Part shown: in pieces, positions 19,035 to 41,930 of the stretch | Layout of the letters: each line of letters opens with the position of its first letter | How positions within the stretch are numbered: the first letter of the stretch is position 1 | NCBI GenBank assembly: GCA_965216315.1 | Contig: CBDCFN010000016.1 | Coordinates: 1,600,001-1,664,000, forward strand | Source of the DNA: a bacterium | Lineage (GTDB): Bacteria > UBA10199 > 2-02-FULL-50-16 > JAJFLM01 | Direction: 5' to 3' | DNA: 64,000 nucleotides | Made by a program: the position numbers and the translations under genes | Notes under the pieces: model-generated | Databases searched by the model: none | Seen by the model: only the letters and a program-made list of their open reading frames with translations | Told to the model about the DNA's origin: nothing

Positions 19035-19041
19035 TGTTAAT

Positions 19042-19111
19042 AGGGGCTAGCGTCGCCCCCTCCACAAGGAGACCTTGCGGAGCCTCCCCCTCTCGCTCGC
19101 GTTGCTCGCTA
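19042..19111 (-). repeat. Structured ~70-nt repeat, copy 1 (intergenic)
   Basis: Near-identical to 19940-20010; internal hairpin CAAGG-aga-CCTTG. Confidence 0.9.
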
Positions 19112-19142
19112 TATCTGAGGTTTGTTCGGGTTAGTATTGTCA

Positions 19143-20051: not shown

Positions 20052-20053
20052 AA

Positions 20054-20857
20054 TCACAACGGTCCGGATATTCCCCCGTCCTTACGGACGCGCCAGAAAT
20101 GTACGATGATGAATACCGCCGTTGCGACGGGTATAAATATGCAATGTAAAACGTAAAAACGCAGCAAGGTCGGCGCACCGACAACGGTTCCACCGAGCAG
20201 TACAGAACGCGCATCGTAGCGCGGCGTGATAACCCCCGTTAAGGCCTGCATCTGTTCCGCCATCGGGCCCTCATGACCGGCCAAGGGTGTAGCGCGCGCC
20301 ATATTTGTTCCGACGGTCACGGCCCAGATCGATAACTGATCCCAAGGCAAAAGATACCCGGTAAAGCTCAGCAAGAAGGTTAAAACTAATAAGATAACCC
20401 CGATGATCCAGTTGAACTCACGGGGGGGCTTATAAGAACCCGTCAAGAATACCCGAAACATGTGGAACATCACCATCATGACCATCAAATGGGCCGACCA
20501 GCGATGCATATTCCGCATGACCATGCCGAAAGGCACGTCAAACTGCAGATACTTCATGTCGACGTAGGCATATTCAGCAACCGGACGATAATAAAACATG
20601 AGAATAATGCCCGTAACCGTCAGGATAATAAAAAACAGGAAGGTCAATCCGCCCGCACACCAAGTATAGTTAATCTTAATAGAGTGACGACGCACTTTAG
20701 AAGGATGAAGATGCAAAAATACATTAGACGCCGTCATCAAGATACGATTACGCCCGGTATCTTTATAACCATGGCGAAAAATTGACTTCCAGACGTCCGA
20801 AGTCACAATCTGGCGACGAATTTCATCGGCCTTAGCCTTAAGCTCTACGAGACTCAT
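20054..20857 (-). CDS. Cytochrome b N-terminal (b6/PetB-like) subunit
   Basis: WCAGG (heme ci Cys position), [32 protein letters not shown]...HFW. Confidence 0.93.
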
Positions 20858-20876
20858 ATCAACCCTACTTCCCCAA

Positions 20877-21419
20877 TTACGAATACTTTACGAACGAACC
20901 AGGTTTTCCCCACTCGCCTTTTTCATAGCGATACTTTTTACTTTTATCGACCAGTAACTCACCCTCGTCGTTAACCCATATTTTCAAGCGTTCCAGTGGT
21001 CGCGGCGCAGGCCCTTCAAAATTAATCCCTTTTTTAGTAAAACCACTTCCATGACAGGGGCATTTAAATTTACTCTCGAGACTAAGCCACCGCGGGGTAC
21101 AGCCGAGATGGGTGCAAATCGCTAAGAGCGCAACAATTTCAGTCGGCGTGCGTTCGATCCAAACTCGATATTCCGTCTTGTATTTTTCGCTGACTTCACC
21201 GACGACGTAATCCTCAGGCCGACCGACTTTAACGATGGGTGAGGGTTCGAACAAAACCCGTGGAAACATGAAACGAAGAAACGCCAGGAGTCCGAGCCCA
21301 ATACCACCCAAAAAAGCACCCCAACCCGCAAAGCCAAAAAAATCACGGCGCGTCCACAGATTGCGTTCGTCGCGATCCTTTTTGAGCTGTCCCGATTCTG
21401 GGATAGTACTGCCCGACAT
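20877..21419 (-). CDS. Rieske 2Fe-2S subunit
   Basis: Tat motif TRRDFF; CTHLGC and CPCHGS; GPAPRPL. Confidence 0.95.
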
Positions 21420-22476: not shown

Positions 22477-24411
22477 ATGCCTACCAAAGAGATTTCAAGC
22501 TCTCAGAAGGCGGCCACAAAGGGACGAAACGCCCTGATGCGCATTGGCATGTGGTTCCAGCGCAATTGGCTCCGCTTTAAGCGCTGGATGACCAATTACC
22601 TTAAAAGTAAGGCCAAGAATTTCCCGACAATCCCCCCTAAATCACGGCGCAAAGTCGTCGAAGAGATAATCCGAAATCCCGTTTTTATCAAGGCAACGGA
22701 GCAATTTGTAAGGGAAACCGGTTTCTCGGCCGATGAAGTCCAGGAAAAAGCCCGCGAGTACGTCAAAGAGATTGCCTCGGACCTCAACTACCTCAGCTTT
22801 CCACTCTGGGACGTTCTGCTAACCTGGGTATTCAACAAACTCTATGACGGTCTCCTTATAGATGAAGAGTCACTCGAAAAAATAAAGGCTCATGTCGGCA
22901 AGGCCCCTATTGTATTCGTCCCCAACCATCGCTCACACATGGACTATTTGTTGCTCTCTTATGTATTTTATTACCGGCAACTCCCGATGCTTTATATCTG
23001 CGCGGGAAAAAATATGAATTTTTGGCCGTTAGGAACATTGTTTCGCAAATCAGGCGCGTTTTTCATCCGGCGCAGTTTTGAAGGGAACCGGCTCTACCAG
23101 GCAGCGCTTTACTCCTACCTTCATTATCTACTCAAGGAAAAAGCTTTATTGGAATTTTTCATTGAGGGAACACGGAGCCGAACCGGCAAACTGCTTTCTC
23201 CCAAGCTCGGCATCTTATCGCTTCTCGTCAAGGCCTTTCAAGAGCAGGAAGACATCAAAGACGTCGTCTTCGTTCCCACGTCTGTCGTCTATGAATCGGT
23301 GATCGAAGAGAGAACTTACGAAAGCGAATCTCAGGGCAGCACCAAAAAAAATGAGAGTATTTGGGACGTTTTTCGCATCCGCAAGTATCTACGTGGCCGC
23401 TACGGCAAGGTTTATATCCGTTTTGCGGAACCGATCTCGGTTAAAGAGCTGCCGGCAACACAAGGTGAAGACGAAAGCGATCTGTTTGTTCCGCGACTCG
23501 CCAATAAAATTGGTTATGCCATCAATAGACACACAGTCGTCACTCCGACTTCGTTGGTTGCTATGTCTATTCTCACTCATGCCAATCCCGTCATTACTCG
23601 CGATGAAATTGAACTGCGCTGTAATCGTTTTCTGGATTACTTAAAATATAAGAACGCGCCCGTTTCCGACCTGATCATCAAACATCCTAAGGAGACAATT
23701 GAGGCCGCTATCGAGCAGTTTGTCCACTCGCGCGTCTTAAAGGAGCATGAAGATGATGACGGCATTTTTTACCGGCTTCCTCATAGTCGCCGCCGTAATC
23801 TCGAATTTTACAAGAATACCGGGGTTCATTTTTTTACATCGGCCGCCGCCGTTGCAAACATCCTGAATGCCGAGGAGTCCGCGCTCGTCTCTCAGCAGAG
23901 AATCGAGTCCGATATTGTTTTTTTACGTGATTTATTCAGTGACGAGTTCCGCTTTAGCAGCAGGAAAAGCCTGCATGAGCACATCAGCGCCATACTCGAC
24001 TTTTTTACCCAACAGGGCATCATCCATCAGGAAGGAACGGATTATCGTGTCAATCCTGACAAGCATCTGCTCCAGGAATATGCCGCCCTGATAGACAGCA
24101 CTCTCTCATTTTATTGGGGCCTCTTTAAAGTCATCTCTAATCTTCCAGATGAGAGCTTTAGCGAAGCGGATATAGTCAATCGATTACAAGATCGAATCCG
24201 CCTCCTCCTGATGCGCCACTTCATAATGCGGCAGGAAGCCATCTCGACTTTCTCGGTCCGTAACGCCTTACAAACCTGCGTGCGTTTCGGTTTTCTTGCG
24301 ATGGAAAAGGAAACGTCGGGTCGTCGCGTGCGCCGCCGTTACAAAAAAGCCGACAACCCGCAACTCCATGAATTCATCGCACATCTGCAACGCTACGTCA
24401 GTGCGACCTAA
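22477..24411 (+). CDS. PlsB-like glycerol-3-phosphate/DHAP acyltransferase
   Basis: PNHRSHMDY, GAFFIRRSF, FFIEGTRSRTGK. Confidence 0.88.
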   Translation: MPTKEISSSQKAATKGRNALMRIGMWFQRNWLRFKRWMTNYLKSKAKNFPTIPPKSRRKVVEEIIRNPVFIKATEQFVRETGFSADEVQEKAREYVKEIASDLNYLSFPLWDVLLTWVFNKLYDGLLIDEESLEKIKAHVGKAPIVFVPNHRSHMDYLLLSYVFYYRQLPMLYICAGKNMNFWPLGTLFRKSGAFFIRRSFEGNRLYQAALYSYLHYLLKEKALLEFFIEGTRSRTGKLLSPKLGILSLLVKAFQEQEDIKDVVFVPTSVVYESVIEERTYESESQGSTKKNESIWDVFRIRKYLRGRYGKVYIRFAEPISVKELPATQGEDESDLFVPRLANKIGYAINRHTVVTPTSLVAMSILTHANPVITRDEIELRCNRFLDYLKYKNAPVSDLIIKHPKETIEAAIEQFVHSRVLKEHEDDDGIFYRLPHSRRRNLEFYKNTGVHFFTSAAAVANILNAEESALVSQQRIESDIVFLRDLFSDEFRFSSRKSLHEHISAILDFFTQQGIIHQEGTDYRVNPDKHLLQEYAALIDSTLSFYWGLFKVISNLPDESFSEADIVNRLQDRIRLLLMRHFIMRQEAISTFSVRNALQTCVRFGFLAMEKETSGRRVRRRYKKADNPQLHEFIAHLQRYVSAT

Positions 24412-26013: not shown

Positions 26014-26058
26014 GTTGGACTTGGGATGGCAAGCGCGACGATTATTGAGAGGGTGTAG
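26014..26058 (+). repeat. Synonymously recoded duplicate of the thiolase last 14 codons plus stop
   Basis: Encodes VGLGMASATIIERV*, same as 25864-25908, with 9 silent nucleotide differences. Confidence 0.9.
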
Positions 26059-29000
26059 CAGCGGATCGAAGCCGTTCATAGGCCTCACTTTCGTACCAAC
26101 TCTTTAACTCTTGCGTGATGACACCGCGGATGCGATCGGCAGAGACCACCGCTGTAAAAGAGCCATCGGCCTCCGCGCGCTCTAAGGTACTCATCCACCC
26201 AATCACGGTATCAACCATTTTTTCAGCCAATATACCCGCTTCCGATTCAGGCCGCCCTTGTTCAATCAGAATATGGGTCATCTGCCGCACCGTCGCCTTG
26301 TAAAATCCAATCCCCTTCCAACCCTTGGCATCCAATACCGCTTCATAAGAAGAAGGATCCGCGTAGACCTTAATATGACCTGCATCGGCTAGCGTTTCCA
26401 GTTTACGGAGATCAACCTCAGTCCCATCTTCTAACGGAACCTTCAATTTCATCCCCAATTCTTTCGCTACCGTGACCTTCATACCGCCTAGTACTTTCTT
26501 ACGTGGGCCAGCCCAAAGATAGACAGGGGCGGGATGATTGACAATGGCCGATAACAACCGCGCCCCATTCTGACCACTACCCGCCACCGACCGCGGATCA
26601 TATCCCGACGCCGCCAAATCACCGACAATGGGCACCCAGGGAAAGTGTTGGGTCATGAACTCGATAAAGCTGGCTAAGTCACCCGCCCCGCGCGGACTCA
26701 GTGTCATCGGTGGATTCCAGTTGAGGTCCTTTCTTGTCAGCTTATTGCCATCCGCATCATAAACTTCGCGGTCAATGTACTGAATGTCGCCCGCTTCATC
26801 CCGGGGAAATTCCATGATCATCTGGGCGCCAACGCCGGCGACGGGAAAGCCGCTCATGCGTGCCATCCCGGCGATGGCATAATGATCCGTGTCAGAAATG
26901 CGATTAAAGGTCCCGGCATCAAAAAGGGCTTCCAACTCGTCGGCCACATCATAGTTGCCACTCTGGGGATCAACCGGCAGACCAAGCTCCTTTCGTTCTT
27001 GATTCACGCGCGTTACGGACGCCTCAATACGGGCATTGATGTCATTTGATCCACGCGGCGTGAAAGGTCTCACCTCTGAAACGATTTCACTCAGCTGCTC
27101 CCAGCTATAAGGTTGTGTAATATCGGGTATGGTTTGGTTGGCCGGGTCGTCCAAGCCCTTTAACACGGCAAGCAAGGCATCCACTTCCGAATGAGCGACT
27201 TGAGTCGTCAGGCCTTCGGCCTTCATGCGGTTGGCCCCGCCTAATTCGATGGTATCGAAGAAGAGTGCCTGTCCGAATATATTGTTAATCGCATCGGCTC
27301 CCGTCAGCAACATGACAGCGCCATCTAATAAGGCACGCTCCGCCGCGCTCATTTCGTCTTCCCGAAGCTCGTTGTTCGGATCGCCTCGCTGAATGCGCAT
27401 GGCACGTGCCAGGATGTAAAGGTACATCCCGATGCCAACTACGGTCACGCGATTGCGGCCGCGCCCTTTCCCTCCCAGCACCGCACTAAACGTCGGAACT
27501 TCTGCAGCCGCTCGGGCCATCGCGCCCGCAGTCAAACCCGATCCCAATAAACTTTTTTGATTCACGCCACCTTGCAACAAACTACAGGGCCGAAAATTGG
27601 ATTGACCCTCCGCTCCTTCCCAATCTCCTTTAAAGACCTCCTGCCATGACGCTGCACCCAAGGCACGAACGACGGCCTCGACCTGCTTCGCCGTCAGATA
27701 AATATCCTCGCCAGTCTCATCACTGCTCAAACGCGCAGGCTGACCCGGATGACGCGGAATCAGCGCGTGAGGCAGGGCCATTTGCGCGCCGGGAGTTTCC
27801 GCCAAATAAATCGGCGGATACCCCTGTTGCCGGGCATATTCCATCGCCAGCCAAAAAAACTTGGCACTTTCAATATCAACCGCGGCTCTTTTGGCCACAG
27901 GATGAGTTGGGTCGTTCCCAATCACCACGCAAGTGATCCCTTCCGGGTGGTTCGGAAGTTTCAATCTCACCTGAAAAGCCGCTACCCCGGTCGGATTAAG
28001 CCCAGCGGGACGCCGGCCAATCCGAAAAAGGCCTTCATCATCGATATACATCTCTCGAATCGCATCCATGTCGAGTGGCGGCGCCGGTGATCCGACATCT
28101 TCCCATAATTTTTCATAGGCCTCGGGTAAAAGCCTTTGCACACGGTCATAAACAAACACCCCACCTAGATTTTTCGCCAAAGTCCGCCGTTTATCGATTG
28201 GAGATTTATCCTCCATTTGTTCTTCGGCATCACGGTAATCATCATCCGGGCTTAAATGAATATTACCCGTACGAAGCATGCGTTCTAATACATTGCGCCG
28301 AACCAAAACCCAACGTCTTCCACTGGGTGTCTCCGCCGAGACAATATACCGTACACTGACGAGGGGTGAACCGATATCAGTATCACTTATAAAGGTCAGG
28401 GCAGTTACACGTCGTGGCGGCATTCTCTCATCTAAGCTCACTTCAAGGCGGGCCTGAATCACAAGTTGTTCTAAATCGATGCCCGCTCGATCATAGGAAG
28501 ATTCTCTCGCAAAGGCGGCCATTAATTCTTCCCAGACAGCAGGAGTTTGATACTGAACACCTTCGACATAGATTCTCATGCGTTGCCATTGAGAAACTTC
28601 ACCCGTCTCCAACTGACGGTGCAATTCCTCACTCATGCGGCGATGGCGCCTCAACAGTCCGGGCATTCGGCCGTGCTTAGACACCAAGGCATCATCCGGG
28701 GCCAGTAAATACGAAGCCATATAAAGAGATGTTTGGTCGGACTGACTGCTATGGAGACGCAAGATCAACGCCGTTTTCACCTCAAAAGGCTGCACATAAT
28801 CAATGTGCCGGTAGTTGCCCAGACGTTGCAATCCGTAGCGATGCCCAAAGGCCGGATCGATCCCGAGCAATGCGGGATCTACCGCAAATGAGCGCTCGCC
28901 GGGCAATGTAATATGGTAACCCAAGCGAAATTTTTCCTGATCATAGCGCACCCGGTTACGTAGAGTAACGTATTGAGGCCTGTTACCCCGTCCCCGATCA

Positions 29001-32000
29001 ATCACAAAAGTCAGGCGCCACACTCGATCACGAATGGAATCCCATTCCGGTGATTCAACAATACTATTAAACACGTTGTTTAAATGTGCCGCGCGGTCTT
29101 GAATAGGATCTTCTCGACTTGTCGGACCGCGCGCCATCCTGACGGATCCAGAAAAAATCTTATCCGGTACGATAATTTTTATCGTCCTATCATCGCTAAT
29201 GGTCCGGCTATCATCCTTTACTTGTGCGAGTATCGTGCGATACGCGTCTTCGAGAGTTTCCCGGTGAACAATATAATGATAGTGGCATTGGGCGTAACGT
29301 CTATCCCCTTCGACGCGCTTCATATCCTTGACAACAGCGCGACGCAGCTTCGGTGATAGCTGAACGACTTCCGGAATATCATAACCTCGCGCCTCCATCG
29401 GGCGCAGAAACTCTATTTCCGCAGCGAGGTCCTGCACTTCGGGTGTCCAGCGCGTATGCGGCCTCAAGAAGCGCAATAACCGCCCGAGCATGGGATAGGG
29501 AGATCGTGATGTAACGCGAATCAGGGCCTGGCGTTCCGGATCACCTGGATTACGCTGCGCCGCCTCTTCAAATGTCGCGATAAATTGTTGTTCGATGAAA
29601 CGTCGAAACGGACCGCGCGCCAATGGAGCCAACGCAACTAGGTCCTCGACAATCTGCGCCATCGTTCGTGCACTATCTGCATCATAGCGCGGCAAAGCGA
29701 GCACAAAGCCCTCCGCTTTATCTCCCTGGACATAAAGTCGACGTCTCTGTTGTGACTCCAGCACCCCAACCCGCATACCCGCTGTATCGTGGCTTAAAAA
29801 ATGTCCTTCGAGAAGATGTCGTGACCCAAGAGGAAGCTGTCGTGGTTGAAAGGATACCGACTCGACTCGGCGACCACTGTAGTCGAGTAGTTGCAAATGG
29901 AGATTGCGATTTTCTTTCGCGGCACGTTCGACCTTGAGATGGAATAAAAGAGGTACGCTCGCATCCTGCTCTCCATCAAGCCCGCGCCACAAGGGAAACA
30001 AAGTCGCAACCGGCTGCCCATGCTCATACAAGACGACATTATCAATATTAATACGCCCATCGACTTCCGTGATGACAGGCCATACCTCAAACTTCTTGCG
30101 CAAAGCCCGTATGCCGAAAAGTCGATGCCAACGGCCCCGCTGACTCGCTAAAGCATGTGCAAGAGGTCCCGAAGCGATTGAGTCATCTCCACGTAAGAGC
30201 CGTTGATATAATGCAACAGCGCCATCGTCACCGTCTATGACGGTCAAGACCGTATTCCTGAAGCCACTCTGTTCCGGACTCACGACAAACCGATTATCCT
30301 CGTCCGCCCTCGGCGGAAAGCGCTCCATAAGTCCTGCACGTTGGTGGCCCTGTTCTAATAAAACCGGAATCGTTCTGATCAGAGCCAAGCGCTCCGGATC
30401 CAGCAGCGCCCTAAGCTCAGCATCTTGATGAAACGTCTCAAAACGTTGGGGGACAGATTCGGGAAGATTATCCGGTAGCTGCGTCACCCAATCATCATAT
30501 AGTTTGCTTTGCCTGAATGAATCGATCTGACTGAGTGTTCCGCGTAAAGTCACTGCATCGTTGGCATCAACGTCTCGCAACGTCTCATGGAAACGCCACG
30601 GTTTCAGGGCAAAAACCCAGCGTAACAGATGACGCCAAACATATTTGAGGCCCTCTCGTTCTTGCCGACTGGTAGAATTCTGATACTCCTTATCTATTGC
30701 CATCATCTCGGTGACGACATGTGGCAGGGCTTGCACGAGCGCCGCAAGAGCTTGAGGCGTGTGCTCGCGTTGCGCTCGTTCAACGATGCCCACAAGACGG
30801 GTTCGATTGAGTCCCCTCTCCAGGAGAGCCGGCATATCCACTCCCCAACGAACGTGGCTTCGTACCATACGTTCTGCGGCACTACTGCGGCCACTCCGAA
30901 ATGGCGTTGTTGTACCGCGACGATGCGTCAGCCACATAAAACTGATCGGATAAGTCAGGCCATCGAGCTCTGCATAGAGTTCTTTTGAAAACACCCCACC
31001 CTGCGCTTGGTTTGCTTCAGTAATCCGCTGCATGACGTCTTGCTGAACCGCTGCAGCGACGACAGCGCGAATCAACGAATTAACTTCACTGAACTGATGC
31101 GGTGGCTGAAAAAATTCACTCAAACGTCGTTCATGGAGTTGTAAGACTTGGGCATCCCAACGAAAGCTAACGGCGGGTCGAGCTTCCATCTTAATCGGCT
31201 CATCGCGCGAATCTATTGTCATCAATTCTGTGTAAAGGGCCTTCCCCTCCCAAATGATCTGAAGCGTCATCTCTCCAAGATCATCACAATCTGGAGCTGA
31301 TAACGCACGACCGTAATGCGACCACTCAGCAACGAACTCTGGCCAGGCCATTGCTTTCAATTGCTCAACATCATTCTTCGCGATAAGCCCTCTAAGATAG
31401 CGTTGGACCGCGTGAGCGGCATAGAGACGCACCAATAAATCGCAGCGAGTGACCTGTTTGGGTAATTGAAAGAAGAGCTTGAGGCGCTCTTGGCCAAGAG
31501 GATGCGGTCCAAAGTCATAGGGGCCGAGTCGCGGCAACAGGTGGTCTCCATTGAGCCATGTGTCGGCACCCTGAGTGAGGCGAACAACATAACTCTCTTC
31601 AGCCTCACTTGACCCTGTCTCTGCAGCGATTTCCGGATAGATAAAGGAAGGAACAATCGCACGTCGGGCTCGTGCGAGCTGACCGATAATAGCAACATAT
31701 GTTTTCCCATACTGCGGTGATGTTTCAGCCTGAACCAGCTGAATTGATAAAGCGCTCGCCTCCCGCGCCGCAGCGCGAACCGTGTCGACATCAATAGCAC
31801 GGTCGATACATCCTAATTGTAAGTTAACGAGCGGTAAGAGCTGTCGATTAAATTCATTGGCTTGAGTTATCGAGAAGGACTCACCGTGGAGGAGTGATTC
31901 GGCACGATCAAGGCGGGCGATGAGTTGCGGTCGATGAAGTGTAGCGAGACTCGCACTCGCTAGTTGAAGCGAACCTGATGACAGCCCCTGCAAAGCCTGA

Positions 32001-32017
32001 ATGGAATACAGGCTCAT
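26042..32017 (-). CDS. 1991-aa protein: novel N-terminal region plus divergent eukaryotic-ACC-type carboxyltransferase domain; no BC or BCCP recognised
   Basis: From ~28200: KRR...VYD, PAGLNPTGVAAF, VVIGND, EYARQQGYP.IYLA, LLGSGLTAG, VGIGMYL, LLTGADAIN..FG, ELGG, LFDAGTF, G.ARMSG.P. Confidence 0.75.
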   Translation of the reverse strand: MSLYSIQALQGLSSGSLQLASASLATLHRPQLIARLDRAESLLHGESFSITQANEFNRQLLPLVNLQLGCIDRAIDVDTVRAAAREASALSIQLVQAETSPQYGKTYVAIIGQLARARRAIVPSFIYPEIAAETGSSEAEESYVVRLTQGADTWLNGDHLLPRLGPYDFGPHPLGQERLKLFFQLPKQVTRCDLLVRLYAAHAVQRYLRGLIAKNDVEQLKAMAWPEFVAEWSHYGRALSAPDCDDLGEMTLQIIWEGKALYTELMTIDSRDEPIKMEARPAVSFRWDAQVLQLHERRLSEFFQPPHQFSEVNSLIRAVVAAAVQQDVMQRITEANQAQGGVFSKELYAELDGLTYPISFMWLTHRRGTTTPFRSGRSSAAERMVRSHVRWGVDMPALLERGLNRTRLVGIVERAQREHTPQALAALVQALPHVVTEMMAIDKEYQNSTSRQEREGLKYVWRHLLRWVFALKPWRFHETLRDVDANDAVTLRGTLSQIDSFRQSKLYDDWVTQLPDNLPESVPQRFETFHQDAELRALLDPERLALIRTIPVLLEQGHQRAGLMERFPPRADEDNRFVVSPEQSGFRNTVLTVIDGDDGAVALYQRLLRGDDSIASGPLAHALASQRGRWHRLFGIRALRKKFEVWPVITEVDGRINIDNVVLYEHGQPVATLFPLWRGLDGEQDASVPLLFHLKVERAAKENRNLHLQLLDYSGRRVESVSFQPRQLPLGSRHLLEGHFLSHDTAGMRVGVLESQQRRRLYVQGDKAEGFVLALPRYDADSARTMAQIVEDLVALAPLARGPFRRFIEQQFIATFEEAAQRNPGDPERQALIRVTSRSPYPMLGRLLRFLRPHTRWTPEVQDLAAEIEFLRPMEARGYDIPEVVQLSPKLRRAVVKDMKRVEGDRRYAQCHYHYIVHRETLEDAYRTILAQVKDDSRTISDDRTIKIIVPDKIFSGSVRMARGPTSREDPIQDRAAHLNNVFNSIVESPEWDSIRDRVWRLTFVIDRGRGNRPQYVTLRNRVRYDQEKFRLGYHITLPGERSFAVDPALLGIDPAFGHRYGLQRLGNYRHIDYVQPFEVKTALILRLHSSQSDQTSLYMASYLLAPDDALVSKHGRMPGLLRRHRRMSEELHRQLETGEVSQWQRMRIYVEGVQYQTPAVWEELMAAFARESSYDRAGIDLEQLVIQARLEVSLDERMPPRRVTALTFISDTDIGSPLVSVRYIVSAETPSGRRWVLVRRNVLERMLRTGNIHLSPDDDYRDAEEQMEDKSPIDKRRTLAKNLGGVFVYDRVQRLLPEAYEKLWEDVGSPAPPLDMDAIREMYIDDEGLFRIGRRPAGLNPTGVAAFQVRLKLPNHPEGITCVVIGNDPTHPVAKRAAVDIESAKFFWLAMEYARQQGYPPIYLAETPGAQMALPHALIPRHPGQPARLSSDETGEDIYLTAKQVEAVVRALGAASWQEVFKGDWEGAEGQSNFRPCSLLQGGVNQKSLLGSGLTAGAMARAAAEVPTFSAVLGGKGRGRNRVTVVGIGMYLYILARAMRIQRGDPNNELREDEMSAAERALLDGAVMLLTGADAINNIFGQALFFDTIELGGANRMKAEGLTTQVAHSEVDALLAVLKGLDDPANQTIPDITQPYSWEQLSEIVSEVRPFTPRGSNDINARIEASVTRVNQERKELGLPVDPQSGNYDVADELEALFDAGTFNRISDTDHYAIAGMARMSGFPVAGVGAQMIMEFPRDEAGDIQYIDREVYDADGNKLTRKDLNWNPPMTLSPRGAGDLASFIEFMTQHFPWVPIVGDLAASGYDPRSVAGSGQNGARLLSAIVNHPAPVYLWAGPRKKVLGGMKVTVAKELGMKLKVPLEDGTEVDLRKLETLADAGHIKVYADPSSYEAVLDAKGWKGIGFYKATVRQMTHILIEQGRPESEAGILAEKMVDTVIGWMSTLERAEADGSFTAVVSADRIRGVITQELKSWYESEAYERLRSAATPSQ

Positions 32018-32120: not shown

Positions 32121-35100
32121 CTATTTGCGCTCCGGCGGTCTCGAGGCCCTGTCCAGTTCGACCGTTCCGCTTGTAATGACCTCAATCTTACCTTTGGCCT
32201 CCAGCAACAGCGAACCATCAGGAGACACATCACGTACAATCCCGGAGGCCGTAATCTCGTCACCATTCATTATATGAACCCGCTTATCTTTTAAATAAGA
32301 GCGTCCGCGGACATAGCTTACAATATCCGGCCACCCACCTTCGTTAAGGCGTTGCATTTCGCTTTCTAAGGCTTCCAGGAGACGTTTCAAGACCATTGCT
32401 TGATCCCAACTCTTGCCGGTATCAATGGCAAGCGAGGTCGCAGGTTTACCGATACCACTAAGATCTTCAACGGTCGCATTCGTATTCAGGCCAATTCCGA
32501 CCACGAAGGCTCCGTCACCGTGCTGTTCAATCAAAATTCCCGCCAGTTTAGCATCGCGCAGATAAATATCGTTAGGCCACTTGATAGTCGGTTGTGAATC
32601 CGAAATAGCTCCAACCGCCCTAGCAACGGCGGCAGCCGTAGCAAAGGTCATCTTAGGTATCACATTTTTTTCGACGGACGGCCTTATCGCGACGGACATG
32701 TAAATACCGGCTCCTTTGCGCGAAACCCAAGTATTACCCGTACGTCCCCGCCCGGCCTTTTGTTGATCAGCAATAACAACCGTCCCTAACATGACATTCT
32801 GATCCAATAACGCCTTCGCAACATCATTGGTTGATCCCACCGATTCGAAAGCAAAAATGCTACGCCCGATCCGACCTGCAGCAATACCCAAATCAAGCGA
32901 CCGAAACCCCTCACCAAGAGTTTTGATAGCGTCAATATCAATACTATCCGCATCTTTCACTGGTCTAGGGGACTCTACCAGAGGCTTATCAACCGCAACC
33001 GCTCTCGGGACAGGTCTCTCCGGACTTTCGCTGCGGGGCGTGTCTTGACGTCTAGTCAAAATGAAGGGGCCGAGCCCCATGCTTTTGACGGCCTTCTCCC
33101 ACTGCTCAACTCCGGCATCCCCCATCGCGGCAAACGTTGTAAATGAATTTAGCCAAACATCGATCTGCGCGTCAACCTGAGCCCGATAGACTTCGCGCCC
33201 TTCATTTAAATTGCGGATATACCAGGGGCGGATTTGATTCGCCGGCACAACTTCATGAATGGCCCCAACGGCCACAGCCTTATCGACAGTGTGGATCCCG
33301 TCATATTCAAGTCGGAAACTTTCTTCCACCTCATCACGGGCCGCGCGTCTAATCTTTTCAATATCTTGAGGAGATGTTACTTTTTGCAGTCGTAACTGCC
33401 AAGACGAATCCGTCTTTAGTAATTCCTCGGCAGCCGCATTAATTTTGCGGGGGAAAATCAACTTTGTAGCGATGTTGCCTCCGATCACGGAAGCAAATGT
33501 ATTATCAACCGCTCCAACCGTAGCGTTGTCATTGATCACCCGCGAAAAGACAACATAAGCGCCACCATGGTAACGTGTCGTCACCAAGAAAGCGAGCTTG
33601 CCTTTATAATTCCGAACCGCCTCCTCAATTGCCGTGCCCCATTCCAATTGATTATTCATCAGTGATTCGGGACTACCATCAAAACCCGAGAGATTAGCGA
33701 CGACAACCAAATCGGTACGGCCACTCGCCGCGTTAATTGCACGCGCAACTTTTTTAGATCCTTCCGGAAACAGCGTCGATCCACTCCAACTATCAGGATA
33801 CCCTGGTGGAATCTCACCCTCACGTGGGAGGCTCTGCGCATCAATACCGATCATCGTCGTGGGGATACCTCCAATCGCCGTTTCTTCGACGCGAATCAGA
33901 TCAGCCCCGCCTTTTTTCCAGAGATGCCAGCGCTGTAACACAGGAGCATCCTGATCGCGGATTGATGCCATTACGGCAGCCACTGGAAACGGCTTCTTTT
34001 TTTCCTTATCCGCGAGGATCTCGCCAATGTCATAGACAGTTATCGTGGGAATGCTCGCCAGTTCCTCTAGCCTATTCAAGATCTTTCCCATCTCAGTCGC
34101 GTCTGCAGAACTAATGCCTTCATCAGACTCCGCTTGAAGTTCCAAGGCCTCCAGCGCCTTCTCTAATTGTTCTTTCTCTGCCGCTCTTGCCGCCTGTTCT
34201 GCCAGCACCTCTTCCGCTGATTTATCCGTTAAGGCCGGATCGACATAACGGTACTTCGTTACATCCCGACCATGGTGGTCGGATGTTTCCCATTGATCAA
34301 CAAGTATCTGACCCGGTGCATGCCAGGTCAAATCATGATGTTGCCAAAGCAGGCGCCTGCCCTCCGAGATCGTCTCAACGTAAAATTGGGTTTCACCAAT
34401 CGGTCCTGTCACCCGTTCCGCCCCGGCGAGACCAAGATTATCTTCGGCACCGACAGATCCCGAAATCATCTGGGCACGATTCCCGGTCAGGGCTGTATAG
34501 GAATTAGCGGCCTTAATCAGGACACCACGGCGGGTCATCTCCATCGTCGCGTTGGCATCCCAATAAGACTGGGCCCCGATGTTGCCTCCATCAACGAGGA
34601 TATTTACGACCCCGCCCGCATCACAAAACTCACCAAGACGTCTCATGACGAGAGCTGTCCAGTCCAGATTCTCAACACCCTTATCCATCGAAATACCGGC
34701 ACCACTTGAGGTGGCTTTCCAATCGATCTCAAGTCCGTGTTTTTCAGCATAATCAATGGCGGCAATGATGCGCGCACATTCAGGCTCTTGAAGCGGACAG
34801 AGTCCATAAGTCGCGTCATTGACTATTTGCATGATACGAATCCCCTCGGGATGTCGCTGTGTCGGCCGTTTCAATTCACCAAAAACGACCTTACCGGTGT
34901 TATTCCCCCGTTCCCGATTGACCTCAATGAGATCGTACGTGGCTCGATGTTCTCCGGTCTGCTCATCCTTAATCAAACGCGGGTTTTCAATATCCAGTTC
35001 ATGAAATTCTCCGCGCCCGTAGCCTTCATCGGCTGTCAGGTCTTGAACATATTGATAGGCCTCAACCAACCCAAGGCCCTCATTGCGCGCGACGCGCATT

Positions 35101-38100
35101 TTATAGGCACTACGCGGTTTGACGTAACCCTCTGGTTTACCCAAGGGCTTGACCGCTTTCATCTTCAGTCCTGTACCGCCGGGATTGCGAATCCGAAATA
35201 GCATATCTTGAAAAGGTTGATCTTCGGACGGTCGCCACCGCATCAAGCGCACGTTCGTTTCTTCGATCTGCATGCCGCGGATGCGCGGCGCAAGCCGCGC
35301 AATTGCACGCTTCATCTGGTCCGGAGTGGCCGTCACTTCGGCCCGTATCAACATATGGATGCGGTGTGCCGCCCAACCCTCTTGAGACTCGGACCGAATC
35401 GAGTGAATTGCCTGTCCAAAGGCCAAATCAATTTCGGGATAGCGCAGCGTTCCATTCCCATCACTTTGGGGGGACAAATGGCGGACAATCGAATAGGCAA
35501 AGAGCCGACGATCGGGTTTTTTCTTCTTCCCCGATGGATCTTTTTCAGTCAACTTAAAGAGGTGATTCCATTCCCACGGTGTCTGCGAGCGTTCCACCTC
35601 CCAATGTCGCCGCAATCGCCAGAGCTCTAATTGAGCCGCCCGATAGGGGTGAATCCCTCTAAAGAGTACGTCTTCAACAAACATCCCCTGGCGTTCCAAG
35701 TCAGGTCGATACGTCAGATAGAACGTTCCCGCTTCACCCATGACAAAGGTCAACGTAATCCGCTTAATTTGGCGATTGGGATCGACAAAGCCAATCAGCG
35801 AAGGAATACGCTCTGCAAGCCGCTCAATATCTCTCATGTCGCCGGTCAATTCCGGAATAATAAGCTCCAGCGTATTGTCGACCGTCTCCTGGGCACCCAG
35901 ATCGGTCGCTCCACGGTGAAAATCTTCCAGGCTCTTGATCCCCCGCTTGATTAAGTTTTTGATTCCATTCTGTCCCAAGGGATCACGGCCGGCAGAGAGA
36001 CCAACCACCGCACGCCTGACCCCGGATTCCTGATCCTTAAAAATCCCGAAAGAATAAAGATCCTGTTCTTTCACATTCAAAGTATGCGCTTCGATGTTGT
36101 GACGATCGCCATAGAGCCGCTGAAAACGGATCGCCGCGGCGATTTCGGCTGCCTCCGCATCATTTCCAAGGATGTGATCGATAATTCCTAAAATCGTAGC
36201 ATCTGCCAGCGACGAAACTTCCTTAATCACTCCCCGCCGTTCAGCGGAGCCCGCCCGGAATCCTTTGGCTTTTTTGATAAGCTCAGCAACTCGTTGGTCG
36301 GCATCGTCACGACTGACCTTGCCTAACTCCGATTCGTTGAGTGTAAAAAGGAGCCCTTGAGCGGCATGCGTCAGCTTTACGACATCACGGTCGAGATGAT
36401 TGAATTTTTCTAATGTCGCCACGAGTTTGCCTTGAGGCCCTCTCAAGGCACCCGCGTCCCACAAGGACTGCAACCAATCGAATACCCGCAGCATTAACAT
36501 CTGGCGAATTTTCGTTTCTTCGCGGGCGATCCGCATTCTGACTAAGGCACGGTCAAGGCCTTCCGAGGGTTCATCGATGGAACTCACGCCGTGGTGGCTC
36601 AAGGCCTGAGACAAAATGGCTCCAAAAGCAGGATCGGAGACCTGACGCGTTTGAATAAAATCATCAAATTGATCGAATAATGAGCGCTTCTCAACGCTTC
36701 CCCTTAAGGCATGGCGCTGAAACAACATCTCAACGTCAATGAAGGCATCGAGAATCTTAACCGCTTCTTCAGCGATGAGTTCATCTCCAACGTCTTGATT
36801 GACCGCATGTCCTAAAGCGTCGAAAATTCCCTGGGCATAGGGGCTTAATTCATCTTGCCGCTCGAAACCCTTAGGAACGGAGGTATAGAGTCGCTGCAAC
36901 GGATCATAGTTGAGACTGGCATCGCGCAATAAAGCCGTCATCTCCCGGTAGCTTTCAGGAAAGTTGCCTACAATGTTTACGATGCCTGCCGCAAAATCTT
37001 CTGTTCCCGGAGCTACGTGAAAGAGTTGCTGCACTTCCGTCTCTCCCGTCGGCCTGAATTCAAGCTGAGGGGCCTCAGGAGGAGGACGATCATCCGGTTC
37101 CTTGATGCGGACGAGTAATTTGCCTTGGAGCACGGCAGCATTTTCAGAAACCAAGTATTCTTCGAGTATGCCGGGGACCTGCGCCTTCAGCGGTTGTTCG
37201 ATCTTCATAACCTCTAGAACGGCAATAACATCACCCACGTTGACAACATCACCCGGCTTTTTCTCATACCGAAGTACGGTTCCATTTTGGGTCGCGCGCA
37301 CTTCTCCGACAGGAGGATTATCGACAGTAAACGCGACTCCATTGACAGAAATTGGATAAGCGCCTTGTTTCTCCGATCCAATGATGGGAACGCGCTTGCC
37401 ATCAATCGTCATGTTAAACTCGGAACCGCTGGGCCCCTTCGTCTCCAAGTCAACTGTGTAGTCGCGACCATTAATACTCACTAAATAGTCGCCTGACCTT
37501 TCACTGACAGAAAGCCTATATTCGCGGCCAAACAGGGCAAATACAAATTCCGCTTCTTTGCGGGGCGGCAACTTCGGCAGACGTCCCTTGCGCAAGGTCG
37601 CAAGCACACCATTATCATATGCACTGCGCTGTTTACGGTAGGCGAGAATCGCCGCAGCCACGAGTGCTTCATGAGAGTACTGTTTGACTTCCCAAGGCTT
37701 GCGCATCGGCATGTAGTGGTCCTGGAGCCATTTATTTGAATAGGCAATGTCACCAAATACCTGATGTCCCATCACCTCGATGGCAAAGCCACGCATCGTG
37801 CGCACGCCGTCAACGGCGAGATCCGTCAAGCCACGCATGGTGACCGCGCGCGCTGAATTGCGGTCGCGACCTTTTCCGATCAATTTAAGGAGCGTCGGAT
37901 CATATCCCGCGGTAATGACATCTCCCTGACGTACCGCGACGTCGGCACGTATGCCTTTGCCCGTGGGCGGCCGAAACAATTTAAGGGTTCCACTGGTTGC
38001 GGCAAACTCCTCATCGGCATCCTGGGCATAGATGCGCACCTCAAAGGCCGTTCCTCTGGGTTCCGGAGTCGATTTCACGGACAAACGATAGCCTTCCGCA

Positions 38101-39887
38101 ACCCGAATCTGTTCTTTCACCATATCAACGCCGGTAACTTCTTCGGTAATCGTGTGTTCGACTTGGAGGCGGGCATTGATCTCCATCGGATAAAAGTCCA
38201 TCCCGTCATAGAGACCTTCAAAGGTCGCAGCCCCGATGTAATCCGCTTCATGGAGCACGCGGACCGCATGTTGATGCATGCCTTGACGTTGACCGTTAGG
38301 AATATTCGGCGCCGGCGCCTCTTCGATGATCTTCTTGTTCTTCCATTGAATGGAACAGTCACGATCACCGACGGCAACACAATTGCCATGTTGATCTCGA
38401 ATCAGCTGAATCTCAACATGCCGCGGTGCAATGAGTTTGTTGACATAAACCGAGGCATCATCGTCATTGTCGATGGCTTTACGTTGGATATATTCGAAGG
38501 CCTGCATGAACTCGCGACGATCATAAAGAAAGACGATATGTTCATGTGGATTGTCGCTGGCTTTTAGCTGCTCTTCCGATAAATGGGACAGCACCAGCGG
38601 ATAACCTAGTTCATTCGCAACCGCCTCACCCTGTGACTGTGTCGCCACTTTATGCCACGGCTCATCCGACGGTCTCGGCAAGATAGCCTTTTCGATAAAG
38701 ACGGTGGGATTACCAAAGGCACGCAGTGCTCCCGCCTGTGCCTTTGAAAAGGCATCTCTCAACTCCGCTTCGTTGTGCACAAAGTAGATTCCTTCACCAC
38801 CGCCTCCCGCTGTGGCCTTAATCACGACAGGATATCCCAACCGCTCTGCAACCTGAATTGCCTGCTCAAGCGTATCCGCCTCACCCCAGGTTAATTGATC
38901 CGGATCGGCCAGCCGTTTGAAACCAATCTTATCACCAACTAATTCCATCGCCGACTTGCGAGGGCCGAGAAAGCGAGAGCCAAGCTCAGTCACCAACGCC
39001 GAAAGCTCCGGATTCTCCGAGGCAAAGCCCCAACCGGGCCACACTCCGATGTCGTTAGCCGAAAGCCCTTCCGCCTCCGCTTGTCTAATCACCTGCTCCA
39101 AGGCTTCGCGCAGGATGACATCAACATCGTTGTAGGCAAGGAGCTTCTTGGTCTTATCGGGATCATCATCCGTCGGATCCGGCACATCGCGACTATCCGG
39201 CACAAGTATCGCTTGATCCGCGTCGACCACAAACGGAGCCCCGGCATCCGCCTGCGTATACATGACGATCACTTCGATTTTTTCACCGCGTTCACGTTCC
39301 AACTCACGAACCGCGGTAATCAGACGCGAAGCCGCCTCACCCCGATTGGGTACAAAGATCTTCCGTAAATGACTTACCTCCGGCTCAACCGTTTCACCCG
39401 GGTCCGCATTCAACTGAACCGCCGCTATGACATTAAGTGGAGCCGGCTCGCCCACAACTGCCGACGTGCCAGCCATTGCAGACGTATCGACGACTGTATG
39501 ACTCCCGGCAAGGGCTTCCGGAGACAAAGCCGCCCTCATTTCCATTAACTTCTCTTCAATGAGCTGTTGAAGTAGGGGTGATTGATCGGATGCCTTCCCT
39601 TCTGTCGCCAGTTCATGCCCATGGTCGAGTACTTCTATCGCTCGAGCGCGAATGACAGCCGCATCAGTTTCTGGATGGAGCTGATCCGCTGTCAGCGAAG
39701 TCAACGGTTGAAGATGGCCGCGGAATGTATCTAAGCCGCGTTGCAAATAAGGATCATCTTGCAGAAGCGTTTGTGTCGACTGAATGTTGTTGAGTATTTG
39801 CGGCTCTTGAAGAACACCGGAGGCCGCTAAGATTCCGGTAGAAGTGAGCGACAATGAGGAGGTCGCTCCGATGGTAAATAGACCCAT
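32121..39887 (-). CDS. 2588-aa single-chain acyl-CoA carboxylase (N-domain-BC-BCCP-central-CT) fused to C-terminal BirA-type biotin ligase
   Basis: NRGEAA, PGWGFASEN, KATAGGGG, RDCSIQ, EINARLQVEH (BC); EVMKIE (biotin Lys ~37204); CT motifs ANLSGFDGSPES, YHGGAYVVFS; BirA STND, QKAGRGR, KWPND, KLAGILIE, GIGLN. Confidence 0.9.
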   Translation of the reverse strand: MGLFTIGATSSLSLTSTGILAASGVLQEPQILNNIQSTQTLLQDDPYLQRGLDTFRGHLQPLTSLTADQLHPETDAAVIRARAIEVLDHGHELATEGKASDQSPLLQQLIEEKLMEMRAALSPEALAGSHTVVDTSAMAGTSAVVGEPAPLNVIAAVQLNADPGETVEPEVSHLRKIFVPNRGEAASRLITAVRELERERGEKIEVIVMYTQADAGAPFVVDADQAILVPDSRDVPDPTDDDPDKTKKLLAYNDVDVILREALEQVIRQAEAEGLSANDIGVWPGWGFASENPELSALVTELGSRFLGPRKSAMELVGDKIGFKRLADPDQLTWGEADTLEQAIQVAERLGYPVVIKATAGGGGEGIYFVHNEAELRDAFSKAQAGALRAFGNPTVFIEKAILPRPSDEPWHKVATQSQGEAVANELGYPLVLSHLSEEQLKASDNPHEHIVFLYDRREFMQAFEYIQRKAIDNDDDASVYVNKLIAPRHVEIQLIRDQHGNCVAVGDRDCSIQWKNKKIIEEAPAPNIPNGQRQGMHQHAVRVLHEADYIGAATFEGLYDGMDFYPMEINARLQVEHTITEEVTGVDMVKEQIRVAEGYRLSVKSTPEPRGTAFEVRIYAQDADEEFAATSGTLKLFRPPTGKGIRADVAVRQGDVITAGYDPTLLKLIGKGRDRNSARAVTMRGLTDLAVDGVRTMRGFAIEVMGHQVFGDIAYSNKWLQDHYMPMRKPWEVKQYSHEALVAAAILAYRKQRSAYDNGVLATLRKGRLPKLPPRKEAEFVFALFGREYRLSVSERSGDYLVSINGRDYTVDLETKGPSGSEFNMTIDGKRVPIIGSEKQGAYPISVNGVAFTVDNPPVGEVRATQNGTVLRYEKKPGDVVNVGDVIAVLEVMKIEQPLKAQVPGILEEYLVSENAAVLQGKLLVRIKEPDDRPPPEAPQLEFRPTGETEVQQLFHVAPGTEDFAAGIVNIVGNFPESYREMTALLRDASLNYDPLQRLYTSVPKGFERQDELSPYAQGIFDALGHAVNQDVGDELIAEEAVKILDAFIDVEMLFQRHALRGSVEKRSLFDQFDDFIQTRQVSDPAFGAILSQALSHHGVSSIDEPSEGLDRALVRMRIAREETKIRQMLMLRVFDWLQSLWDAGALRGPQGKLVATLEKFNHLDRDVVKLTHAAQGLLFTLNESELGKVSRDDADQRVAELIKKAKGFRAGSAERRGVIKEVSSLADATILGIIDHILGNDAEAAEIAAAIRFQRLYGDRHNIEAHTLNVKEQDLYSFGIFKDQESGVRRAVVGLSAGRDPLGQNGIKNLIKRGIKSLEDFHRGATDLGAQETVDNTLELIIPELTGDMRDIERLAERIPSLIGFVDPNRQIKRITLTFVMGEAGTFYLTYRPDLERQGMFVEDVLFRGIHPYRAAQLELWRLRRHWEVERSQTPWEWNHLFKLTEKDPSGKKKKPDRRLFAYSIVRHLSPQSDGNGTLRYPEIDLAFGQAIHSIRSESQEGWAAHRIHMLIRAEVTATPDQMKRAIARLAPRIRGMQIEETNVRLMRWRPSEDQPFQDMLFRIRNPGGTGLKMKAVKPLGKPEGYVKPRSAYKMRVARNEGLGLVEAYQYVQDLTADEGYGRGEFHELDIENPRLIKDEQTGEHRATYDLIEVNRERGNNTGKVVFGELKRPTQRHPEGIRIMQIVNDATYGLCPLQEPECARIIAAIDYAEKHGLEIDWKATSSGAGISMDKGVENLDWTALVMRRLGEFCDAGGVVNILVDGGNIGAQSYWDANATMEMTRRGVLIKAANSYTALTGNRAQMISGSVGAEDNLGLAGAERVTGPIGETQFYVETISEGRRLLWQHHDLTWHAPGQILVDQWETSDHHGRDVTKYRYVDPALTDKSAEEVLAEQAARAAEKEQLEKALEALELQAESDEGISSADATEMGKILNRLEELASIPTITVYDIGEILADKEKKKPFPVAAVMASIRDQDAPVLQRWHLWKKGGADLIRVEETAIGGIPTTMIGIDAQSLPREGEIPPGYPDSWSGSTLFPEGSKKVARAINAASGRTDLVVVANLSGFDGSPESLMNNQLEWGTAIEEAVRNYKGKLAFLVTTRYHGGAYVVFSRVINDNATVGAVDNTFASVIGGNIATKLIFPRKINAAAEELLKTDSSWQLRLQKVTSPQDIEKIRRAARDEVEESFRLEYDGIHTVDKAVAVGAIHEVVPANQIRPWYIRNLNEGREVYRAQVDAQIDVWLNSFTTFAAMGDAGVEQWEKAVKSMGLGPFILTRRQDTPRSESPERPVPRAVAVDKPLVESPRPVKDADSIDIDAIKTLGEGFRSLDLGIAAGRIGRSIFAFESVGSTNDVAKALLDQNVMLGTVVIADQQKAGRGRTGNTWVSRKGAGIYMSVAIRPSVEKNVIPKMTFATAAAVARAVGAISDSQPTIKWPNDIYLRDAKLAGILIEQHGDGAFVVGIGLNTNATVEDLSGIGKPATSLAIDTGKSWDQAMVLKRLLEALESEMQRLNEGGWPDIVSYVRGRSYLKDKRVHIMNGDEITASGIVRDVSPDGSLLLEAKGKIEVITSGTVELDRASRPPERK

Positions 39888-41882: not shown

Positions 41883-41905
41883 GAGACCTGTAAACACAGT
41901 GGGCT

Positions 41906-41930
41906 CATCGCACATTTTCGGAAAAAGTTG
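41906..41930 (-). promoter_or_regulatory. CAAC-N16-CGATG promoter-like motif (copy C)
   Basis: CAACTTTTTCCGAAAATGTGCGATG, 23 nt before ATG 41882. Confidence 0.6.

Follow-up and report, generated by a model that had tools for sequence, protein, structure and literature searches.

The locus

The stretch analysed here, 64,000 nucleotides of contig CBDCFN010000016.1 from a bacterium of the GTDB lineage UBA10199, is referred to throughout as the window, and the genome to which it belongs as G000. Its minus strand carries an open reading frame (ORF) for a protein of 1991 residues, here P0001, lying 103 nt downstream of, and on the same strand as, the gene for a neighbour of 2588 residues, P0002. 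The P0001 ORF, first reported in a reading made without database searches (below, the sequence-only reading), is genuine. Its product belongs to a rare family, of which five members were found, and, from amino to carboxyl terminus, is divided into a short module resembling the start of P0002, a family-specific region, a homologue of the central domain (CD) of acetyl-CoA carboxylase (ACC), and a carboxyltransferase (CT) of eukaryotic type. The biotin carboxylase (BC) and the biotin carboxyl carrier protein (BCCP) that accompany these last two domains in a complete ACC were not detected in it. Coordinates are collected in Table 1.

Table 1. Features of the window and of related loci
Feature	Position	Strand	Details and evidence
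P0001 ORF, CD-CT protein	26042..32017	minus	1991 aa; ATG start, stop codon included; ORF list and translation
P0001 residues 1-145, N-terminal module in common with P0002	31583..32017	minus	Smith-Waterman, BLASTP, reciprocal best matches
P0001 residues 146-803, family-specific region	29609..31582	minus	conservation in family members
P0001 residues 804-1270, ACC central-domain homologue	28208..29608	minus	hhalign, AF2, Foldseek
P0001 residues 1271-1991, complete two-half CT	26045..28207	minus	phmmer, hhalign, AF2, Foldseek, motifs
Spacer between ACC-BirA gene and P0001	32018..32120	minus	103 nt; sequence and fold
P0002: N-extension, BC, BCCP, ACC_central, CT and BirA	32121..39887	minus	2588 aa; Pfam, NCBIfam
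Thiolase, convergent with P0001	24631..25908	+	Pfam
PlsB/GPAT-type glycerol-3-phosphate acyltransferase, same block as thiolase	22477..24411	+	Pfam
Acyl-CoA synthetase-like gene	40050-41915	minus	621 aa; window gene list
N-terminal peptide sites, window	39800-39887; 31930-32017	minus	
N-terminal peptide sites, other loci	L023 ~8480; L034 ~15000		
ACC and FAS I loci	L029:1131-14276 (G027:C4); L030:1000-16737 (G011:C31)		

The carboxyltransferase region

The C-terminal part of P0001 finds its closest counterparts among eukaryotic ACCs. A phmmer search of the PDB returned 21 sequences at E<=1, all except one of them (20/21) eukaryotic ACC or ACC-CT chains. The best, 4asi_A (human ACC1 CT), pairs residues 1273-1655 of P0001 with residues 13-366 of the chain at E 4.7e-23; the remaining match, at E 0.18, is a beta chain of propionyl-CoA carboxylase (PCC), the sole PCC beta chain in the search. 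Profile comparison gave a longer alignment. A profile of P0001 and two relatives, compared by hhalign with 13 multidomain ACCs, is colinear with residues 1012-2131 of Schizosaccharomyces ACC over residues 804-1991 of P0001, and the CT part taken alone (residues 1271-1991) aligns through both halves, its residues 1271-1971 pairing with 1493-2131 of the S. octosporus enzyme (Prob 100, E 1.3e-51). The C-terminus of P0001 is a CT of the eukaryotic ACC type, complete with N and C halves. The sequence-only reading had recognised here the motif order of eukaryotic ACC CT, and rightly so, the motifs that it listed being present and the PDB matches agreeing; its further claim that the second half is eroded is contradicted by the alignment through both halves and by a motif of the second half, LGGM, that does not vary within the family.

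The family-invariant CT motifs, assessed over five members, are VGIGMY, LTGADAIN, LGG, AASGYD, GARL and LGGM. The LAASGYDP of P0001 is the family's fixed counterpart of ANWRGFSG, every member having AA[SAK]GYD at this point. Conservation was also measured over 35 columns, chosen for a conservation of at least 85% among 22 reference CTs, these being 13 multidomain ACCs, the six-member clade of the neighbour and the three PccB-like CTs of the genome; one very long-branched ACC (locus L034) was excluded both from this set and from the 27-row tree described below. P0001 keeps 26 of these columns and all five family members keep 20, among them GIG..Y, LTG, LGG, G[FY], GA and the second-half GG. From the literature on PccB and yeast CT we take GIG..Y in the N half and GG in the C half to be the oxyanion-hole motifs, with GG on the biotin side, and both sets of glycines, which the sequence-only reading had singled out for inspection, are invariant in all five members (VGIGMY and LGGM). 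Since the motifs are invariant though the members are only 30-50% identical, selection acts on the catalytic-type CT motifs of the family.

The central domain

Upstream of the CT, residues 804-1270 alone were matched by hhalign, among the 13 ACCs, to residues 1018-1450 of S. octosporus ACC (Prob 95.5, E 1.5e-8), and the Pfam family ACC_central weakly matches one other family member, that of genome G077 (E 0.0017). The AF2 model of residues 801-1991 (mean pLDDT 81.7, pTM 0.75) shows in order four helices, two alpha-beta domains and the CT, a pattern that agrees with the account of CDL, CDC1 and CDC2 in PMC4833862. Residues 804-1270 are a homologue of ACC's central domain over CDL, CDC1 and CDC2; the CDN part was not detected in P0001.

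Comparison of an AlphaFold model with yeast ACC by Foldseek had been suggested in the sequence-only reading. The holoenzymes of yeast and human ACC head the matches, together with the CD-CT crystal structures from Chaetomium, all aligned over ~1250 columns with E from 8.6e-55 to about 1e-43; CT-only entries align over ~760 columns with E about 1e-34. Global TM-scores are low (0.25-0.45, with rmsd about 25 Å), as is to be expected where domains joined by hinges are set at differing angles.

The N-terminal half

Neither Pfam nor NCBIfam finds a BC family in P0001, the only Pfam match being to the carboxyltransferase family PF01039, below threshold, and NCBIfam giving nothing. Comparison of residues 1-803 with the 13 multidomain ACCs by hhalign gives a best E of 0.6, and a five-member N-terminal profile likewise finds no BC. 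The search for BCCP had the same outcome: PF00364 is absent, a PF00364 scan of the genome returning P0002 and not P0001, and hhalign of the family N-terminal profile against the BT/BCCP region of ACC gives E 0.2. P0001 is without detectable BC or BCCP, as the sequence-only reading had proposed, and a recognisable BC at the N-terminus, which it had named as an outcome that would overturn its view, was found by none of these methods. With the N-terminal profile one ACC was matched weakly in the region after its BC (E 0.0013, the database being small), a match that was rejected because hhalign did not confirm it (E 0.2).

Residues 146-803 appear mostly helical to ~600, and further on, at ~640-775, have a beta-rich part that is conserved; conservation with the four other family members (P0004, P0005 and those of locus L053 and genome G077) begins at about residue 480-600 of P0001. 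Residues 1-803 match nothing in Pfam, NCBIfam, PADLOC or ESM Atlas, and the best E in a PDB profile search was 0.029. The AF2 model of the N-terminal region is poor, with a mean pLDDT of 45.4 and blocks at 600-780 that reach 51-73, and VIA-align of this model returned generic helical matches only (Z <= 8.6, under the noise level for helical models), a comparison by which 640-775 is barely tested. The ~1250 N-terminal residues that had been described as unassigned are reduced to about 650 for which that description stands, residues 804-1270 being assigned to the central domain and residues 1-145 being common to P0002.

Family membership and phylogeny

An exhaustive HMMER scan with residues 1-1200 of P0001 against 1.84 billion cluster representatives found three proteins: P0001 itself, P0004 (1687 aa, E 1.1e-66) and P0005 (1770 aa, E 4.6e-37), each a singleton cluster and the latter two on short assembly contigs. 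Within the phylum, which has a single class, the family profile matches two of 93 genomes, G000 and G077. The G077 member is cut by a contig end, leaving 1329 aa, and its probable N-terminal fragment lies on another contig, to which it is linked by a weak match (E 4e-6). A full-length metagenome member of 1728 aa, at locus L053, was found by a scan with a C-terminal alignment; an earlier metagenome scan found no member. Five members were found in all, comprising intact frames of 1687-1991 aa from four independent sources and the G077 fragment. Homologue searches of the word-based kind turned up, besides P0001 itself, only some few ACCs of eukaryotic type, and a central-domain profile search with longer lengths returned P0001 only, both being weak evidence; a related-locus search of the genome contigs with P0001, A1 or P0002 found nothing.

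On a CT tree of 27 rows and 656 columns (LG+G4) the five members come together at 100/100, on a stem of 1.36, within the group of multidomain ACCs, and this group is in turn split at 100/100 from the PccB-like CTs, a type of which the genome has three. A quick tree under a mixture model agreed with this, and branching among the main ACC subclades is not resolved. Forcing the family together with P0002, its relative P0006 and their orthologue in genome G031 costs 111.6 log-likelihood units (p-AU 8.75e-44, approximately unbiased test), and BLASTP aligns only 77 residues of the P0001 and P0002 CTs (E 0.004). The tree and the AU test thus mean that the family is neither an ordinary bacterial CT of the PccB/AccD type nor a recent copy of its neighbour, the two outcomes that the sequence-only reading had set against its own proposal. 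On the same tree four eukaryote-type ACC CTs, two of them fungal, adjoin the ACCs of genomes G025 and G011 in a joint 100/100 clade; this clustering might have to do with how eukaryote-type ACC arose or was transferred, four eukaryotic sequences being far too few to say.

The neighbouring carboxylase and the common N-terminal module

The neighbour P0002 is a complete multidomain ACC that continues at its C-terminal end into a fused biotin ligase, Pfam and NCBIfam placing BC at 174-722, BCCP at 861-928, ACC_central at 1371-1569, CT at about 1660-2240 and BirA at 2344-2578. The fusion is not an assembly slip, since P0006, a relative 93% identical to P0002, likewise runs from ACC into BirA sequence; in G031, by comparison with the fused P0002, BirA is a separate gene overlapping that for ACC. 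An enzyme fused to its own biotinylating ligase seems unusual. The CT of P0002 had been described as bacterial-type, a description refuted by the presence of ACC_central and by its place inside the multidomain-ACC group, across the 100/100 split from the PccB-like CTs. P0002 is the likely donor of carboxybiotinyl-BCCP for P0001.

The two proteins have their beginnings in common. Over residues 1-145 of each, P0001 and P0002 can be aligned starting at residue 1, with a Smith-Waterman score of 84, a figure that may be compared with a mean of 32.5 (sd 5.7) and a maximum of 69 over 2000 shuffles, none of which reached 84, and with at most 49 for other 150-aa windows of P0001 or P0002. BLASTP of the module in the two proteins gives E 2e-4, and the modules are reciprocal best non-self matches among 18,054 ORFs of the genome (E 0.014 and 0.24). 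The module opens with an uncharged peptide of ~30 residues, rich in Ser, Thr, Gly and Leu, of the form M-[GSA]-x-[FY]-[ST]-I, then ~20 Ser/Thr/Gly/Leu-rich residues and then L.EP. The same peptide starts the ACC orthologues of G031 and G001, and is present on no other ORF of the window's genome. Since other family members are without the module, and other ORFs of the genome without its opening peptide, the module is a feature of the P0001/P0002 pair of G000. Among the sequence evidence it gives the strongest hint that P0001 and P0002 work jointly in this organism, and it may serve to bring them together.

The spacer of 103 nt between the two genes is predicted to form two stable hairpins (-43.9 kcal/mol, z -3.2, with 1 of 200 shuffles as stable) and has no U tract. 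A Shine-Dalgarno-like GGTGAGGG precedes the P0001 ATG within it, and a scan of the spacer for promoter- or terminator-like consensus sites found none. This hairpin spacer may set how much P0001 is made relative to P0002, as an element of processing, stabilisation or attenuation.

Genomic context

The locus is a conserved chromosomal block of lipid genes, composed of an ACC or CD-CT gene, in some cases BirA, a thiolase and GPAT. The order in G000 is the ACC-BirA fusion, P0001 and then the convergent thiolase and GPAT; in G031 it is an ACC of 2381 aa, a separate BirA, the convergent thiolase and GPAT, and MutL; and at L053 the family member is followed by a separate BirA, two ORFs, the convergent thiolase and GPAT, and MutL. 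The L053 member holds the slot of ACC directly before BirA, as ACC itself does in G031. The G077 member is followed by a convergent thiolase, 66% identical to that of the window. The thiolase was considered as a specific partner of P0001 and rejected, the thiolase-GPAT pair also flanking the ordinary ACC and BirA of G031. The two ORFs between BirA and thiolase at L053 (L053:11349-13209, plus strand; 327 and 295 aa) have no Pfam match and no phmmer counterpart in the window's genome. Elsewhere in the window, 16341-21419 on the minus strand holds a Rieske / split cytochrome b operon (b6-like and subunit IV-like) whose last gene encodes a protein of 897 aa carrying several cytochrome c domains.

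Giant ACC-like frames of 1800-3800 aa are common in the phylum, and in two genomes the giant ACC is directly followed by a gene resembling type I fatty acid synthase (FAS I), of 4382 aa in G027 and of 5246 aa in G011; the G027 gene has the full fungal Fas1/Fas2 Pfam domain set in one chain. A scan of the window's genome for AccA-type CT found none, and the genome gave no ordinary ketosynthase match, PF00109 matching thiolases only. It does carry a divergent FAS I-like ORF of 3856 aa (G000:C15, locus L056:5002-16572, plus strand) with AT, MaoC-DH, KR and NMO-type ER domains; its colinearity with the fungal-type FAS I of G027 is weak. Because neither an ordinary ketosynthase nor AccA was found, G000 appears to depend for fatty acid synthesis on a type I FAS that is very divergent. 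Among the giant frames of the phylum, one in genome G022 (L033:6482-17938, minus strand, G022:C18) encodes an ACC-like protein of 3819 aa with ~1370 extra residues before BC; downstream of it lies a gene (L033:3717-6527, minus strand) for a Ser/Thr kinase of 937 aa to which an FGE-sulfatase-type domain is fused.

Functional interpretation

P0001 is best read as a paralogue of the phylum's eukaryote-type multidomain ACC, keeping CDL/CDC1/CDC2 and the whole CT, in which BC, BT, BCCP and CDN would have been swapped for a family-specific N-terminal region. With both biotin-handling modules missing, the protein probably borrows them from the adjacent giant carboxylase. The reading that we favour, tentatively and at a little short of an even chance, is of a stand-alone CD-CT carboxyltransferase supplied by carboxybiotinyl-BCCP in trans; of the roles offered in the sequence-only reading, namely partner subunit, decarboxylase or pseudo-enzyme, this is the first, the other two being live rivals. 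P0001 would form the usual CT homodimer, as known ACC-type CTs do, and would take CO2 from carboxybiotinyl-BCCP in trans and give it to an acyl-CoA, or carry out the reverse reaction. The donor in G000 would be the upstream ACC-BirA fusion P0002, and free BC and BCCP proteins would take this role where a giant ACC is absent. One BC-BCCP would thereby serve two different CTs, that of P0001 having its own acyl-CoA specificity. Catalysis, the partner BCCP, the substrate and the binding of P0001 to P0002 are matters that we infer from a gene context that links the family to biotin, ACC-BirA being upstream in G000 and BirA directly downstream at L053, and from the complete CT, the retained central domain, the invariant motifs and the common N-terminal module. 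The genome's apparent need for malonyl-type extenders, with its 3856-aa type I FAS and no AccA-type CT, counts in the same direction, and precedent exists in mycobacterial LCC, in which one BC-BCCP subunit is reportedly combined with more than one CT subunit.

A more elaborate version, which we hold to be rather unlikely, makes P0001 and the ACC-BirA fusion a single machine, held together by the common N-terminal module. One BC-BCCP, biotinylated in cis by the ligase fused to it, would swing between two unrelated CT dimers and so supply the divergent type I FAS with two extender units, such as malonyl-CoA and a substituted malonyl-CoA; in relatives without a giant ACC, free BC and BCCP would be used.

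Several observations weigh against a catalytic CT fed by the neighbouring ACC. The Lys of the 'SA.KTAQAI' stretch, present in 20 of the 22 reference CTs, is Asp or Glu in all five members (D1780 in P0001); the Phe of the RGF motif is Tyr (Y1806) and a Val is Thr (T1849), both again fixed in five of five; the family clade sits on a long stem of 1.36-1.73 substitutions per site; and P0001 scores 17.6 bits with PF01039, under the gathering threshold of 22.3, as does P0005 with 19.0, the three other members passing it (P0004 52.5, G077 53.7, L053 49.3). The Lys change, the long stem and the sub-threshold score would also fit altered chemistry or lost activity. Context supplies further difficulties: the N-terminal module is confined to the G000 member, L053 has a transposase rather than an ACC upstream of its member, and the G077 assembly (95% complete) shows no giant ACC, having instead two heteromeric BC/BCCP/PccB sets, with unrelated genes upstream of the member's probable N-terminal fragment. 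The contexts of G077 and L053 mean that the trans partner, if any, is not always a P0002-type ACC, and the earlier description of P0001 as a companion of the 2588-aa protein holds for the window's genome and fails for the family as a whole, two members of which apparently lack an adjacent giant ACC.

One rival is a regulatory or scaffolding pseudo-enzyme, in which a non-catalytic CD-CT binds ACC and thereby adjusts malonyl-CoA output, whether through a CT heterodimer, through the common N-terminal module or through a hold on BCCP, an explanation that we consider unlikely yet deserving of attention. The replacement of a near-universal Lys in all five members, the long stem and the two Pfam scores under threshold (17.6 and 19.0 bits) would be natural in such a protein, which could use the module that it has in common with P0002, and PMC4833862 presents the central domain as a regulatory hinge region in fungal ACC. 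Invariance of the backbone-type catalytic motifs of both halves at 30-50% identity is, however, unexpected for a pure binder, and at least two members apparently have no adjacent giant ACC to regulate. A composite heterodimer is in any case unlikely, since the P0001 and P0002 CTs fall in different deep clades and barely align. Less probable again, in our view, is a biotin-independent acyl-CoA decarboxylase, or another enolate-forming enzyme of crotonase type, which might for instance decarboxylate malonyl-CoA to feed the thiolase in a decarboxylative condensation. P0001 has no BCCP in cis, its biotin-side residues in the second half are changed, CT-fold enzymes that work without biotin reportedly include the malonate decarboxylase MdcD-MdcE, and a thiolase is convergent in both G000 and G077 (66% identical) and two genes away at L053. 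The thiolase-GPAT pair nevertheless marks the locus and not the family, as its place beside the ordinary ACC and BirA of G031 shows, whereas the adjacency of BirA at L053 and of ACC-BirA in G000 points to biotin, and the second-half GG motif, presumably the biotin oxyanion hole, is invariant. A last alternative, that P0001 is a functionless leftover of an ACC gene duplication now in decay, is hard to credit: the loss of BC and BCCP, the long branch and the rarity of the family (two of 93 phylum genomes) speak for it, but frames of 1687-1991 aa are intact in four independent sources, and both the motifs and the family-specific N-terminal region are conserved.

A secreted mimic of a host ACC was rejected for want of any signal in its favour. 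The suggestion of a mimic or inhibitor made in the sequence-only reading finds no support: a search of P0001 for a segment as hydrophobic as those of signal peptides or membrane helices usually are found none (best 19-aa Kyte-Doolittle window 1.52), and the gene lies in a conserved chromosomal lipid block common to free-standing relatives.

Relation to known systems

To our knowledge the ACC central domain has hitherto been seen only inside complete single-chain ACCs, and its role is still poorly understood; a limited full-text literature search found no description of a CD-CT protein lacking BC and BCCP. A natural protein of this composition offers a handle on central-domain function without BC-BCCP, and bears on whether eukaryote-type CTs accept BCCP in trans and on the evolutionary assembly or dismantling of multidomain ACCs. 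Were the two-CT machine outlined above to exist, it would be a naturally 'split' eukaryote-type ACC, whose central domain is able to function apart from BC-BCCP. More broadly, eukaryote-like ACCs occur together with fungal-type FAS I in this little-known phylum, a combination that is relevant to how such megaenzymes originated.

The CT fold is also encoded apart from BC in the biotin-dependent decarboxylases and transcarboxylase represented by GcdA and 12S and in the biotin-independent MdcD-MdcE, which work in reverse or free of biotin. A specific relation in sequence between P0001 and GcdA, 12S or MdcD-MdcE was not found, none of these being among its PDB matches at E<=1. Closer in the proposed logic are the actinobacterial acyl-CoA carboxylases (AccA3 with AccD4, AccD5 or AccD6; LCC), in which a free-standing CT uses a common BC-BCCP. 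Their CTs are, in contrast, PccB-type subunits of ~520 aa that form hexamers and have no central domain, and the P0001 CT stands clearly apart from the three PccB-type CTs of its own genome.

Bacterial multidomain ACCs, including P0002 and those of G031, G025, G027 and G011 among others, are of the same CT and central-domain lineage, and the family nests within them. They are complete BC-BCCP-CD-CT homodimers, whereas P0001 is without the first half-reaction and the carrier. One such enzyme, SACE_4237 of Saccharopolyspora erythraea, appears in PMC6491548 as a bacterial multidomain ACC, central region included, that forms a homodimer.

The best matches of both sequence and fold are to eukaryotic homomeric ACC (yeast Acc1, human ACC1/2; 5csl, 5i6f-5i6i, 6g2d, 4asi), in which CDL, CDC1 and CDC2 lead in the same order to a two-half CT. 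P0001 differs in being without BC, BT, BCCP and a recognisable CDN, in its ~800 unrelated N-terminal residues, and in the substitutions fixed in its family (K to D/E, the F of RGF to Y, V to T). Since BC and BCCP are absent and the central domain and two-half CT are present, P0001 should be regarded as an ACC-derived variant and not as an ACC. It is a natural protein that resembles the engineered 'CD-CT' constructs with which Chaetomium ACC was crystallised, as these are described in PMC4833862.

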